Assembly: GCA_025839675.1 (NCBI GenBank)
Contig: CP104013.1
Location: forward strand, 5,430,001 to 5,462,000
DNA from: Candidatus Lokiarchaeum ossiferum
Lineage (GTDB): Archaea > Asgardarchaeota > Lokiarchaeia > Sigyniarchaeales > Promethearchaeaceae
Direction: 5' to 3'
DNA length: 32,000 nt
Shown: one piece after another, positions 337 through 31,255 of the stretch
Layout: each line of letters opens with the position of its first letter
Position numbering within the stretch: position 1 is the stretch's first letter
Notes under the pieces: generated by a model
What the model was told of the DNA's origin: nothing
Databases searched by the model: none
The model's input: only the letters and a program-made list of their open reading frames with translations
Made by a program: the position numbers and the translations under genes

Positions 337-347
337 AAAAAAGAAAA
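337..347 (-). terminator. Oligo-U tract (UUUUCUUUUUU on the minus strand), a likely archaeal terminator of the hdrA-vhuD transcript
   Basis: The plus strand reads aaaaaagaaaa at 337-347, about 29 nt downstream (minus sense) of the structured 3' UTR element and upstream of the next gene start at 291. Archaeal termination typically uses T-runs. Confidence 0.4.
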
Positions 348-375
348 TTATTGATAAATTATTTTGGTTCAATTG

Positions 376-453
376 CATATATGGGATACATCCTCGCAGG
401 ATTCATCCACCTTGCACTTGGTTTATAGCAAGGGTTCATCTGGGCCATATATG
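376..453 (-). promoter_or_regulatory. Candidate SECIS element(s) in the 3' UTR of the hdrA-vhuD operon: two GAUGAA-prefixed hairpins enclosed by a 9-bp helix
   Basis: The minus-strand RNA is CAUAUAUGG-CCCA-GAUGAA-CCCUUGC-UAUAAACCAAGU-GCAAGG-UG-GAUGAA-UCCU-GCG-AGGA-UGUAUC-CCAUAUAUG. The outer helix pairs 445-453 with 376-384 (9 perfect bp). Hairpin 1 spans 410-434 with an A-rich 12-nt loop. Hairpin 2 spans 391-401. The element begins 24 nt after the vhuD stop, and the two genes upstream carry five in-frame UGA codons. Confidence 0.55.
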
Positions 454-477: not shown

Positions 478-945
478 TTAGACTGTTTTTTTTTTGGCTT
501 TCTTGGCAGCAGCTTTTGCGGCAGCATCAATTTGATGCATTCTTAGTTTAGAAGGCCCTAACCGTCTGACTGTATTATCCATTTCAACTGCAAGTTGTCG
601 GAAGCGTTCTCCTTCAGCCGCACTGATAAAGATCATTTTCAAACGATCAGGTTCTAATCCTATAGTATGCATGATAGTTTTGAGATATTGGACTAATTTT
701 TGGGCATATTCATTGCCATTCACAAAATCACATTCTCCAATATGTCATCCACCTATGATGACTCCATCGGCTCCTTTATTAAAGGCTCGCATGACCATAT
801 CTGCTGATACTCTTGCCGTGCACATTACTCGAACTGGTCGAATACTTGCAGGATATTGGGCTCGAATGGTTCCGGCCATATCGCAGGCGCCGTAACCTCA
901 TTTCCAACATAAGAAAGCTATAATCCGTGGTTCAAAATTTTCCAT
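478..945 (-). CDS. vhuD: F420-non-reducing hydrogenase / heterodisulfide reductase-associated delta subunit (MvhD/VhuD family), a selenoprotein with two in-frame UGA (Sec) codons
   Basis: The ORF track shows only the C-terminal 81 aa (478..723). Reading the same frame upstream through TGA at 745-747 and 898-900 gives MENFEPRIIAFLCWK-U-GYGACDMAGTIRAQYPASIRPVRVMCTARVSADMVMRAFNKGADGVIIGG-U-HIGECDFVNGNEYAQKL... This is collinear with the MvhD motifs FCCNWCSYGGAD and GGCHxGDCHY, with U at Cys positions. GGGGGA lies upstream of ATG 943-945 (SD-like). The gene terminates with TAA. Confidence 0.85.
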
Positions 946-963
946 TTTCATTTATCCCCCTAA

Positions 964-2979
964 TTATGCCTTAGATTTCTCCATAAGGGCATCTTCCAAT
1001 ATTGCGTCAATTAAATCGCCGTATTGTTCATCACGATAGTATCGAATTGATATTGCCGAACTTGGGCACACTGATGCACAAAGACCGCATCCTCGGCAGA
1101 GGATTTCATCGACAAGCGCTCCATCTTCTTGAGTTATTCGAATTGCATTATAAGGACAAGCTTCCGCACACATTCCACATCGTGAGCATTTGGCTTCATC
1201 TGGTACGGCCCGAATAAGTTTAATTCGATATTCTCCATTGGATAATAACTTACCAATAGAAGAGGCTGCACCCTTTGCTTGCATAATGGATTCTGAAATG
1301 GCTTTAGGGCCATGACATGCACCTGATAATGCAATTCCGGGAACATCGGTGTCGACAGTGTTCAATCGCTGGTGGAATTCTTTTAAGAATCCGCTCGGAT
1401 GTTTTGACAGATTTAGGGCTTTATTCAATTTTCCAAAGGTATCCGAAGGCATCATCGCTGCAGATAACACAATTAAATCAAATTCATATTCTTTAATCGT
1501 TTTATCTGGGCTTAAGGTGTCCTCAAGCACCACTATGAGATTTTGGGTCTTTGGATCTTCGCGAACACGAGCTACCTTTGAGCGTATATATTTTACTCCG
1601 TCGCGTCTGGATTGGGTATAATATTCTTCATATCCCTTTCCTGCTGCGCGAATGTCAATATAAGATACAACTACTTCAAGATCTGGATCATGTGTTTTTA
1701 CAAGCTTAGCATTTTTAATGCTAACCATACAACATACTCCACTTGAGCAGTATACATTTCTATTGACATCCCGTGAGCCAACGCATTGGACAAATAAGAC
1801 GCTTTCTGGTGGTTTTCCATCCGATGGTCTATGTAAATGGCCGACTACTGGTCCATTGGGGGCGAGCATTCGTTCAAATTCGAGTTGTGTTACTACGTTC
1901 TCGTATTTGCCATAACCTAAATATCCATCAATTGGTTTGTATTCATCCCAACCTGTTGCTACAATTATTCCTCCTACTTTCACAGAGAAGAGTGTATCTT
2001 CTTGATCAAATTTAACGGCTGTAAGTTCACAAACGTTGGCACAATTGCCACATTTGATACATGCATCCATATCAATTTGAGCTCTCATTGGGACTGCTTG
2101 CGAGAATGCAACATATATTGCTTTTCGTTGTCCTAAGCCTTGATCGAATTCACTACGTGAAACAGCGGGGCACACATCAAAACATGCGCCACACCCATTG
2201 CAATCGGTATTTGTATATCGTGCCTTTTGCAAGATCTCAACTTCAAAGTTTCCTACATAGCCTTCTACTTTGGTAACTTCAGACAACGTTAAAAGTTCAA
2301 TATTTTCATTTCTTTGCACTTCTAACATGACAGGCCCCAAGATTCAGATACTACAATCATCGGTTGGGAATGTGCGGTCAAGCATACTCATTTTTCCACC
2401 AATTGTTGGATTTTGTTCAACTAAATACACTTTATGACCTTGGTTCGCAAGATCTAAAGCGGATTGTAGTCCAGCAACTCCTCCTCCAATGACTAAAACT
2501 GCATCCGATACAGGTACTACTCTTTCGGGTACTACTTCCAATCGGGCCGCTCGTGCAACTCCTGCTCGAACTTGTTCCTTAGCCATTTCCAAAGCTTTCG
2601 CTTTATCTTTTTGGTGGACAAAACTTGTGTGCTCTCGAATATTGACGAACTCCAAATATGAAGGGTCTAACCCGCAATCATTTAAAACTGCTTGGAAAAC
2701 CGGTTCATGTGTTTTTGGGGTTCAAGCCGCAATTACCACTCGATTAACATTGTATTCATCAATATATTTCTTAATGAAATCTGCTCCTGAGGTGGTTCAG
2801 AGAGATAAATTTTTATCCGCAATAACAACATTTGGCAAAGTTTTTGCATATTCTGCTAATGCTGCTATGTCTATTACACCAGCGATATTTACACCACAGT
2901 CACATGGGAAAACAGCAATTCGTATTTCATCTGGATTAGTACTCATTGTCGTATTCTCATTTTGTGTAGAATTTTGCAT
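964..2979 (-). CDS. hdrA: Heterodisulfide reductase subunit A (HdrA), a selenoprotein with three in-frame UGA (Sec) codons
   Basis: ORF-track fragments 2797..2979, 2344..2655 and 964..2340 share one frame and are separated only by TGA at 2797-2799, 2722-2724 and 2344-2346. The joined product reads ...FPCDCGVNIAG...DKNLSL-U-TTSGADFIKKYIDEYNVNRVVIAA-U-TPKTHEPVFQAVLNDCGLDPSYLEFVNIREH...VIGGGVAGL...FPTDDCSI-U-ILGPVMLEV... It is collinear with the HdrA motifs YxCSDPGQ, VVAACSPRxHEP and DCSMCILAPK. It also has the FAD GxGxxG motif, 4Fe-4S ferredoxin CxxCxxCxxxCP motifs, and FVQCVGSRD / YCSSGVCCM. The start could instead be ATG 2944-2946. Confidence 0.9.
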
Positions 2980-29851: not shown

Positions 29852-31255
29852 TTATAAATAGGTTTCAATCAATGAATTGATTCGATTTTTGAATTCTGGC
29901 ATCAATTGATTTATATTGTTAATTTCAGTATCTTGATTTCTTAATAAACACAAAAGATAGACATCAATGTTATTCAAAGGTAGCTTGTAGAAAGTAATGA
30001 TATCATTGTCCATCTGCCACGTGGCTGTATTATGTTTAAGTAATCGGAACTCAGAAAATGTTTTAAACAAATTTTGAAAATGAGGTGCGGACATTTCTGA
30101 AACTTGACTGGAAACTTTATTTGTCGAGAAATCAGAAAGAATTACACTATTCTCATTGATTAATAAGAGTGCTTGAGCATTAATTTCCTGTGCAAACCAT
30201 TTCAATTGTTCGCGCAAAATCTCCCTATTTGGGGACATGAGCGAAATCCCTTCTGAAAAAGACTTATTGAGACTATAAGCGTTAAAGATTGATGTGTTAA
30301 AAAATTTGACTCGAAAATCCTTGGAATTTTCAAGTATTCGATTTTTAAGCAATTCAATTTTTTTTGTTAACTCATGATCTTCTTTGATATCAGGATCAGC
30401 TTTGTGAAAATTAACAACAATTGGTGGGTGTTGTTTAAAGGATCGAAATATATTTAAAATTTGAAAGAGAAATTCTAAGGCTTCCACATAACGCGTTTCA
30501 TCTCTGATATCAATTAAAAAATTTAATAAATTGGTATCGAAGAGATAAAGATCGGCTTGTTTCAGAAAATTCTGCCGGTATTTTAGCTGTCCGCCCACAT
30601 CCCATTCGAGTAAACTTTGCCCCAACATTTGATCTTGGGAACGTTCGATTCCTTTAGTGGGCTTTATTCCTGTTAGTTCACTATATCGTTGCTTAATAGC
30701 TCTTAGATAACTTGTCTTTCCGCTCGCATCCAAACCAGTAAATAATAATTTCAATTTTCGTGCATTGCTTATCGGTGAATTTACGTTTGAAACAAATTTA
30801 TCCACTTTTTCTAAAAGTTCCACCATAAATTCTTTTGAATCTTTTAGATAATTATCATGAGTTATTTTATCTGCTGTTTCTGAGAAATATATTGATAAAT
30901 CCTTCATATTCTCATATAAGAACGCTGCATGATTTTCATCAACAAGAATTGAAATTGTGGAGGCTTTTGCTTGGCCGCGAGCTTCCTTATCGTGGATAAG
31001 GAAGAAATATGTTAATCCGGTGAGACATAAATCTGGAAATGGTAAGATACCGAAATATTTGATGGAATCAAAAACTTGCCCTTCTTGGTAGATTTGTTCT
31101 CCCATGAGAAGTGAAATAGTTTTCATTGAAATGTTGATCTTATGGATTTCTGACATGTCTTCTGGAAAAGTTACCACGGGGGTGGGACCTTCATACTCAA
31201 AGACGGCAAAAATCAAACCCTTTATTATATTCGTTAACGATATTGCAGTTCCCAA
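29852..31255 (-). CDS. Multidomain GTPase: N-terminal longin-like domain, Arf/Arl-like GTPase domain, C-terminal roadblock-like domain
   Basis: 467 aa. The central domain carries Arf-family signatures: G1 GLDASGKT (Arf: GLDAAGKT), PTKG, and G3 WDVGGQ (identical to Arf). G4 is degenerate (FHKAD). The N-terminal ~130 aa (LIFAVFEYEGPTPVVTFPED...YFGILPFPD...) and C-terminal ~130 aa have alternating beta/alpha patterns suggestive of longin and roadblock folds; that is an inference. TTG start with GAGGGG 6 nt upstream. Confidence 0.7.
   Translation of the reverse strand: MGTAISLTNIIKGLIFAVFEYEGPTPVVTFPEDMSEIHKINISMKTISLLMGEQIYQEGQVFDSIKYFGILPFPDLCLTGLTYFFLIHDKEARGQAKASTISILVDENHAAFLYENMKDLSIYFSETADKITHDNYLKDSKEFMVELLEKVDKFVSNVNSPISNARKLKLLFTGLDASGKTSYLRAIKQRYSELTGIKPTKGIERSQDQMLGQSLLEWDVGGQLKYRQNFLKQADLYLFDTNLLNFLIDIRDETRYVEALEFLFQILNIFRSFKQHPPIVVNFHKADPDIKEDHELTKKIELLKNRILENSKDFRVKFFNTSIFNAYSLNKSFSEGISLMSPNREILREQLKWFAQEINAQALLLINENSVILSDFSTNKVSSQVSEMSAPHFQNLFKTFSEFRLLKHNTATWQMDNDIITFYKLPLNNIDVYLLCLLRNQDTEINNINQLMPEFKNRINSLIETYL

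Follow-up and report, generated by a model that had tools for sequence, protein, structure and literature searches.

The 32,000-nt stretch of DNA analysed here (hereafter the window), positions 5,430,001 to 5,462,000 of contig CP104013.1 in the genome of Candidatus Lokiarchaeum ossiferum (assembly GCA_025839675.1), carries two adjacent selenoprotein genes, hdrA and vhuD, and a 78-nt RNA element in the 3′ untranslated region (UTR) that follows them. This element is very probably one selenocysteine insertion sequence (SECIS) of the Lokiarchaeota kind (Asgard, eukaryote-like, type I), located in the 3′ UTR of the bicistronic hdrA-vhuD mRNA and set in a conserved three-way junction. As judged from sequence comparison, the junction is made up of a closing helix (helix I), the SECIS arm (hairpin 1), and a small accessory arm (hairpin 2), and all three helices covary. 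The element stands beyond chance because it is conserved, with compensatory changes, in about 90 related loci; this is the decisive evidence, the folding z-score alone being modest. The SECIS itself, its place after vhuD, its sharing with hdrA, and its action on several distant UGA codons in two cistrons were already published by Mariotti et al. 2016 (PMC4989117) and surveyed by Huang, Xiao, and Zhang 2024 (PMC11227280). Our comparison adds that the SECIS arm sits in a junction in three groups of vhuD genes, four PrxL genes, and one lone hdrA, with covariation of helix I and of the third arm; the window itself contributes one more example of a sequence group that is slightly shorter and in which AGGA and AAGA cores also occur.

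Structure of the element

The element occupies 453-376 of the minus strand, with 24 nt between the vhuD stop codon and its first nucleotide, and the layout given in an initial annotation of this DNA was borne out: helix I is a perfect closing helix of 9 bp, GAUGAA stands ahead of both hairpins (440-435 and 407-402), and an oligo-U tract follows (Table 1). Hairpin 1 pairs CCCUUGC (434-428) with GCAAGG (415-410) in six Watson-Crick pairs, with A.G and C.U appositions adjoining the core, and its 12-nt loop is A-rich and has AG(U) at its end; hairpin 2 is AUCCU-GCG-AGGAU at 402-390. Folding of the window sequence by RNAfold with no constraints reproduced all three proposed helices, at z-scores of −2.0 to −2.4 (for 91 nt, −2.4, with 2 of 200 shuffles folding equally well). 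A separate observation concerns the base of the SECIS stem, where the window and its five closest relatives have A opposite G at 435/408 (columns 27/55 of alignment A5), beside the tandem G.A pairs; in kink-turn terms this is a conserved third purine-purine apposition (3b.3n).

Table 1. Features of the hdrA-vhuD 3′ region, with coordinates counted from the first letter of the window
Feature	Position	Strand	Sequence or remark
Helix I, 5′ strand	445..453	−	CAUAUAUGG; candidate C helix of a kink-turn
5′ junction linker	440..444	−	CCCAG; NNCAG/NNCAA in most of group C; C and A invariant in alignment A8
SECIS core, 5′ half	436..439	−	AUGA
SECIS arm (hairpin 1)	408..435	−	stem ACCCUUGC / GCAAGGUG, apical loop UAUAAACCAAGU
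SECIS core, 3′ half	406..407	−	GA
Accessory arm (hairpin 2)	389..405	−	UGA-AUCC(U)-GCG-(A)GGAU-G; 4-5 bp, G-Y in loop
Helix I, 3′ strand	376..384	−	CCAUAUAUG; perfect 9 bp with CAUAUAUGG; linker UAUC (388-385) just before
Oligo-U tract	337..347	−	UUUUCUUUUUU; begins 29 nt past helix I
vhuD/mvhD-type selenoprotein gene (PF02662 family)	478..951	−	UGA (selenocysteine, Sec) 900-898, 747-745; stop UAA 480-478
hdrA selenoprotein gene	964..2979	−	UGA (Sec) 2799-2797, 2724-2722, 2346-2344; stop UAA 966-964; from translation

The open reading frame (ORF) fragments of hdrA in the window terminate at the three in-frame TGAs, and the vhuD homologues carry PF02662; both Sec positions of vhuD are TGA in 79 related loci and are Cys in genes of the CNWC.../GCH type. 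A multi-Sec HdrA upstream of VhuD is an arrangement known from Mariotti et al. 2016 (PMC4989117). The gap between the hdrA stop and the vhuD start, which the initial annotation had put at 18 nt, has that length only if the second AUG is used and is 12 nt for the first. A shared element would serve three UGAs in hdrA and two in vhuD, the farthest of them about 2.4 kb away, and the proposal that one SECIS region is common to all five is supported, the element being specific to Sec-type genes.

Fit to the published Lokiarchaeal SECIS

Mariotti et al. 2016 (PMC4989117) defined the lokiSECIS as AUGA, a 9-bp stem, an 11-nt loop, and GA, near the stop codon, with the first five loop bases A-rich, the last a G, and an A usually before that G; AUGA was described as invariant. 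All of their hdrA-vhuD tandems had a single element after vhuD, presumed to act for up to six UGAs over about 2 kb. The survey of Huang et al. 2024 (PMC11227280), which covered over 400 Asgard genomes, found eSECIS-like structures in 85% of selenoprotein genes, one such element nearly always being common to hdrA and frhD (vhuD); their type I model has a GA_[G/A]A core, an upper stem of 7-15 bp with at most two mismatches, a loop of 8-20 nt, and no ministem.

Hairpin 1, in which the initial annotation had seen a eukaryote-type AUGA...GA core with an A-rich loop, agrees with both definitions but for a single nucleotide. AUGA (439-436) lies directly 5′ and GA (407-406) directly 3′ of the stem; the loop, which is AUAAACCAAG when nine stem positions are counted, begins A-rich and has G as its final base, again with the terminal AG of the published elements. 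A single element lies near the vhuD stop, its core starting 41 nt past it, and none follows hdrA. Read by the type I model, the window has a GA_GA core, eight stem positions with two mismatches, and a 12-nt loop. The element also resembles both published types in being confined to Sec genes and in matching no eukaryotic, bacterial, or euryarchaeal SECIS model. Unlike the lokiSECIS, the window has 28 nt rather than 29 between AUGA and GA, with A.G, C.U, and U.U in its stem, and its group includes AGGA and AAGA cores.

Neither the closing helix nor the second hairpin, found here in all three sequence groups, is part of the published definitions: the main texts of Mariotti et al. (PMC4989117) and Huang et al. 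(PMC11227280), to which this comparison was confined, make no mention of a three-way junction or third arm, and the words junction, hairpin, and helix either do not occur in them or have another sense, the Huang text giving only a "lower stem" and an "internal loop" with no conserved nucleotides. A full-text literature search for SECIS together with three-way junction returned nothing relevant.

Beyond the Asgard archaea, the element shares with the eukaryotic SECIS (form 1) its 3′ UTR location, action at a distance, an expected kink-turn-like core, and the order of parts (helix I, internal loop, AUGA/GA quartet, helix II, and a loop with unpaired A's); it differs in a much shorter helix II (8-9 positions) and in the extra hairpin placed in the 3′ side of the internal loop. 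SBP2 is not known in Lokiarchaeota (Mariotti et al. 2016, PMC4989117). With the euryarchaeal (Methanococcus/Methanopyrus) SECIS, the element has the 3′ UTR location in common. The euryarchaeal vhuD SECIS has AUGA and GAC/AAC around an extra stem, and the group B and PrxL elements described below have GA-C after the stem; the conserved GAA_A loop and the upper stem of G-C pairs only, typical of euryarchaeal elements, are not found here.

Conservation and covariation of the three helices

Scans of GTDB genomes and JGI metagenomes with a VhuD alignment gave 160 loci, and look-ups of the closest proteins gave 10 more; among the 160 scanned loci plus the window, 79 were Sec/Sec and at least 48 Cys/Cys. 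Anchoring on the AUGA...GA core yielded 86 distinct 3′ UTR elements in three groups. Group A (n = 38) has helix I AUGUGUU / AACACAU, AGAA after the core GA, and hairpin 2 AUGG-NNGCA-CCAU; group B (n = 34) has helix I ACCGAA / UUCGGU, CUA after GA, and hairpin 2 ACC...GGU; and group C (n = 14), to which the window belongs, has a helix I that differs in almost every member, UG-N after GA, and hairpin 2 [AG]UC[CU]-NGYRN-GGAU-G. The layout common to the groups runs from helix I through a linker of 2-6 nt, the core tetranucleotide, a SECIS arm of 28-31 nt, GA, a linker of 0-4 nt, a hairpin of 4-6 bp (mostly with a 5-nt loop), and a linker of 0-5 nt back to helix I. The spacing from AUGA to GA is 29 nt in 66 of the 86 relatives, 28 nt in 8, 30 nt in 11, and 31 nt in 1, and the core is AUGA_GA in 80 and AUGA_AA in two, the other variants being AGGA, AAGA, and GUGA. 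Within group C, the core U is replaced while GA is kept in five loci, with AGGA in L164, L170, L083, and L084 and AAGA in L162. Helix I sequences are unrelated across lineages (CAUAUAUGG, CUCGAUGG, AAUGCAG, CUCAAAUUC, AAGGUAA, AUGUGUU, ACCGAA, AAUCCC).

The topology recurs in folding and in permutation. For 67 of the 86 relatives, the unconstrained minimum free energy (MFE) structure of a fixed stretch round the core had the SECIS stem together with a helix enclosing it and a hairpin between the two, and the same topology arose in 27% of cases when the flanks were dinucleotide-shuffled. Complementarity between an element's own 5′ and 3′ flanks, scored with the geometry restricted, was reached by none of 5000 permutations, for group C alone as for all 86; this score was used in place of an earlier, looser helix score (45-nt 3′ window) that discriminated poorly. 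A hairpin directly after the core is likewise favoured: over the 22 nt that follow GA, 94% of elements and 31% of shuffles reach a stem score of 4 or more, and the hairpin 2 loop holds G-C or G-U in 85 of 86. A T-loop or GNRA identity for this loop was considered and not adopted, positions 1 and 5 being too variable.

Pairing was counted for the named helices on sequence-only MAFFT alignments, with partners slid by 1-3 columns as control, which never paired more than 51% of cells; an N-padded segmentation was not used for these counts, because it was fitted to the structure and hence circular. In group B, 84.7% of cells were paired (best slid value, 45%) and 16 of 19 pairs had both-side changes, including four of six in helix I and three of four in hairpin 2, which was 89% paired. 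Group A had 92.0% of cells paired (slid best, 49%), with both-side changes in 13 of 22 pairs and five of nine in helix I; its hairpin 2, 98.7% paired, is essentially invariant. For the window and its five closest relatives, the figures were 81.6% (slid best, 45%) and 9 of 21 pairs; helix I was 92.6% paired with both-side changes in four of nine pairs (U-A to G-C, A-U to C-G), and the four real pairs of hairpin 2 formed in every sequence. The SECIS stem covaries in every group, and RNAalifold on the 14 group C sequences found hairpin 2 independently, with pair counts of AU:8 GU:5 GC:1 and CG:9 UG:3 GC:1 UA:1. The covariation that the initial annotation had named as a check is therefore present for helix I, the SECIS stem, and hairpin 2; it fails for the additional lower stem GGAU/AUCC that had been proposed under hairpin 2.

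These comparative data refute the notion that the element is a fortuitous, functionless local fold of an AU-rich 3′ UTR. A single-sequence z-score of this modest size and the loosely similar topology with shuffled flanks speak for such a fold, yet conservation, covariation, and specificity for Sec-type genes speak so plainly against it that we regard it as next to impossible.

The order of parts (helix I, loop, (AU)GA, SECIS arm, GA, hairpin 2, helix I) follows, at the level of topology, that of the k-junction (Wang, Daldrop, Huang, and Lilley 2014, PMC4005666), as in the junction of the thiamine pyrophosphate (TPP) riboswitch; the likeness is one of secondary structure only. The bulged-strand loop of known k-junctions has 3-4 nt and that of the element 5-9 nt, counting the A-U of AUGA; the element, unlike k-junctions, has linkers of 0-4 nt beside the third helix; and k-junction function is that of a ligand sensor, where the element would be a recoding signal.

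The second hairpin

The initial annotation had tentatively taken hairpin 1 as a eukaryote-type SECIS and hairpin 2 as an independent one, of the archaeal GAA type or the AUGA type, with one SECIS hairpin for each cistron. The window by itself invites this reading: GAUGAA precedes both hairpins, the alternative pairing GGAU-GAA-UCCU-GCG-AGGA-UGU-AUCC can be drawn, and the window MFE has a GGAUG/UAUCC lower stem. Moreover, Huang et al. 2024 (PMC11227280) found that about 3% of Asgard selenoprotein genes have an eaSECIS-like fold of the GAA_A kind downstream of the eSECIS-like one; they themselves judged these folds non-conserved and probably non-functional.

Comparison with relatives largely refutes it. 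AUGA stands ahead of hairpin 2 in 4 of 14 group C elements (AUGG or AUGC in the others) and in none of the 72 of groups A and B, where AGAA or CUA takes its place. Held against the euryarchaeal definition (GAA opposite a single A, an upper stem of G-C pairs, a conserved lower stem), hairpin 2 departs on each count: the GAA is replaced in relatives by GGA, GAG, GCG, or GCA, the 3′ bulge is UGU instead of a single A, and the upper stem UCCU/AGGA includes U-A pairs. Among the six closest relatives, the lower stem GGAU/AUCC is paired in 50% of cells and does not covary; of the four pairs, two occur in the window only, and the stem would consume the GA needed by the SECIS core. Nor is hairpin 2 an AUGA-type SECIS, as it has no 3′ GA partner and a loop of 3-8 nt without an A run. 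One hairpin per cistron is contradicted because single-cistron selenoprotein genes carry hairpin 2 as well, namely PrxL in four genomes and a lone hdrA. We therefore hold two independent SECIS to be most improbable; hairpin 2 is, so far as comparison of the letters can tell, a conserved arm and not a SECIS.

Specificity and occurrence in other genes

Model R2, a covariance model trained on 16 relatives from group C with both the window and helix I left out, found the element in the window at 444-385 of the minus strand, full length, with 57 bits and E = 1.5e-11, the next match in the 32 kb scoring 10 bits, and it found nothing elsewhere in 672 kb that included Cys-type loci. A strict lokiSECIS pattern gave 70 matches at the 3′ ends of Sec-type vhuD genes and none after Cys-type ones, and its sole plausible match in the window was this element. 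Consistent with both, and as a check proposed in the initial annotation had demanded, the element was not found downstream of the Cys-type mvhD genes examined. A possible second lokiSECIS in the window, at 30403-30440 (+), which fits the pattern loosely with GUGA...AA and seven of eight stem pairs, lies antisense to a GTPase gene and was judged a chance match.

The same architecture was found in other selenoprotein genes, after PrxL and after a lone Sec-containing hdrA. Selenoprotein sequences from the Huang 2024 supplement led through homologues to PrxL loci in four Lokiarchaeia genomes, and the junction is present in all four 3′ UTRs. Helix I (AAUCCC/GGGAUU) there spans the stop codon, and the element consists of AUGA, a stem, an A-rich loop ending in AG, GA, CA, and hairpin 2 ACCYUGUGNGGGU. 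In the Helarchaeota metagenome-assembled genome (MAG) Meg19_1012_Bin_504 (locus L026, 4376-6400 (+)), the Sec-containing hdrA comes after a mvhD of the Cys type, the reverse of the order in the window; the UGA stop of hdrA lies inside the AUGA of an AUGA_AA core, and the layout is the same, with helix I AGUCAA/UUGACU and hairpin 2 CCCCU-CAUGCA-AGGGG. Model R1, built from group B vhuD elements only, detects both the PrxL elements (E about 1e-8 to 1e-6) and the one at L026 (E = 3e-7). Hairpin 2 thus also accompanies single-cistron genes with one or two Sec codons.

In the Hermodarchaeota isolate DZ1M.436, a single MAG holds a group A element (L003) and a group B element (L004). At locus L086, where vhuD has Sec in the first of its two positions and Cys in the other, the whole junction lies about 230 nt past the stop codon (1130-1230 (+)) instead of at 0-50 nt; its core is AUGA_AA, its helix I is CUCUAC/GUAGAG, and its hairpin 2 is CGUCC-CGCAA-GGAUG.

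These occurrences bear on another explanation, that the SECIS arm alone is functional and helix I and hairpin 2 form a generic 3′-end module serving stability, termination context, or folding insulation. Helix I is free to vary in sequence if its pairing is kept, published models take the hairpin alone as the conserved unit, and 55% of relatives have a run of at least five T's in the 80 nt that follow the element, compared with 16% of random windows from the same loci, all of which would suit such a module. The tract at 347-337 is itself likely an archaeal transcription termination signal. A mere stabiliser, however, would not need the geometry that is retained across three gene families and by groups with nothing else in common: the arm has a fixed position, past the 3′ GA and ahead of helix I, and its linkers measure 0-5 nt, its size is narrow (4-6 bp, mostly 5-nt loops), its loop G-Y is near-invariant (85/86), and at L086 the junction has shifted downstream as a unit. 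We consider a generic module unlikely, and prefer a single SECIS that has the junction as part of its architecture.

Other observations on relatives and neighbouring genes

Two Sec/Sec vhuD loci, L130 (about 870-980) and L138 (contigs SDBU01044168 and LAZR01007147), have a SECIS that breaks off at the early A-rich loop (AUGACUCUUAUAAAAAA and then GGGGAUUUC...), and an intact element was not found within the next 400 nt; the break could reflect a rearrangement, an insertion, or a decaying locus. Locus L148 holds, at 1718-1830 (+), a second complete group B three-way-junction SECIS about 1 kb downstream of that of vhuD, with no evident same-strand ORF upstream, which may be what is left of a vhuD 3′ end that was duplicated. 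In database translations of Sec-type VhuD, W occupies the two Sec positions for 54 of the top 120 hits (the entries concerned are among P0001-P0057 and P0121-P0161 of our protein set); gene calling apparently used a TGA=Trp code here, which leaves the selenoproteins mis-translated and not truncated.

The neighbours in the window, among them an Nre protein and a Gtr1/RagA-Arf-like GTPase, fit an Asgard genome. The latter, a 467-aa protein at 31255-29852 (−), has Gtr1/RagA and Arf-family GTPase matches and is an Asgard-type "eukaryotic signature" GTPase; several ORFs of 350-480 aa near its gene have no Pfam match. The next same-strand gene downstream of the element (291-1 (−)) encodes a CheY-like receiver domain (PF00072, E = 3e-17) and runs past the window end. 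A tRNA search of the window found none.

Discussion

In the mechanism that we propose, the AUGA...GA core would form tandem sheared G.A pairs, and so a kink-turn, at the base of the short stem with its A-rich loop, and the SECIS arm would let the Sec-specific elongation factor with Sec-tRNA(Sec) decode all five upstream UGAs. In the junction, which is closed by helix I, the small hairpin lies in the strand facing the kink-turn loop, past the 3′ GA and ahead of helix I. Together, helix I and the small arm may hold, pre-organise, or extend the kink-turn platform, may insulate it from the AU-rich flanks, or may be part of the surface read by an archaeal SECIS-binding factor; we know of no such protein in archaea. 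The hdrA-vhuD mRNA would probably end at the oligo-U tract.

Several points weigh against the identification of the element as a Lokiarchaeal SECIS in a shared junction. The window spans 28 nt from AUGA to GA, one nucleotide short of the 9 bp plus 11 nt (29 nt) of the lokiSECIS, and its stem, which can be read as nine positions with a 10-nt loop or as 6 bp with a 12-nt loop, has only six of nine positions in Watson-Crick pairs, the others being A.G, C.U, and U.U. In the window MFE, the stem of hairpin 2 is extended so as to take in the GA of the core, in competition with the kink-turn. On the per-group MAFFT alignments, RNAalifold found the SECIS stem, and hairpin 2 as well for groups A and C; it missed helix I throughout because the linkers vary in length, and named structures and the permutation test were therefore used. 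Covariance models fail across groups: R2 missed groups A and B, and R1 gave no match to the window element, also when its filters were switched off. The case for a shared architecture is therefore made from covariation within each group and from our own segmentation. Aligning all 78 elements at once with MAFFT shifted the AUGA cores of different groups against one another, and that alignment could not be used. The role of the accessory arm is purely what we infer. In Methanococcus maripaludis, a Lokiarchaeal SECIS was non-functional (Peiter 2025). Finally, the Rfam covariance models, which the initial annotation had suggested as a check, gave no SECIS and no other credible family, either over the whole window at the gathering threshold or over 250-560 at E <= 10; this is explained by the report that Lokiarchaeal elements escape every existing SECIS tool (Mariotti et al. 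2016, PMC4989117).

A stronger proposition, which we put forward tentatively and think less likely than not, is that the Lokiarchaeal SECIS is an obligatory three-way, k-junction-like RNA in which helix I and the third arm, with its G-Y loop, are required determinants. The presence of the junction in all three vhuD groups and the other genes examined, the covariation of helix I and the third arm, and the coexistence in one MAG of groups sharing the architecture alone suggest that the reader of the signal recognises shape. If the junction were obligatory, its arms would either fix the kink-turn or offer the archaeal SECIS-binding factor a direct recognition site, and it would be explained that hairpin-only models miss part of the signal. 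Depending on the construct used there, it might also help to explain the failure of a Lokiarchaeal SECIS in Methanococcus. The extra arm would then lie, later to be lost, on the path to the internal loop of the eukaryotic SECIS. A better-defined minimal element is directly useful for binding assays, structural work, and heterologous reporters, and for models with which to search Asgard genomes for selenoprotein genes.

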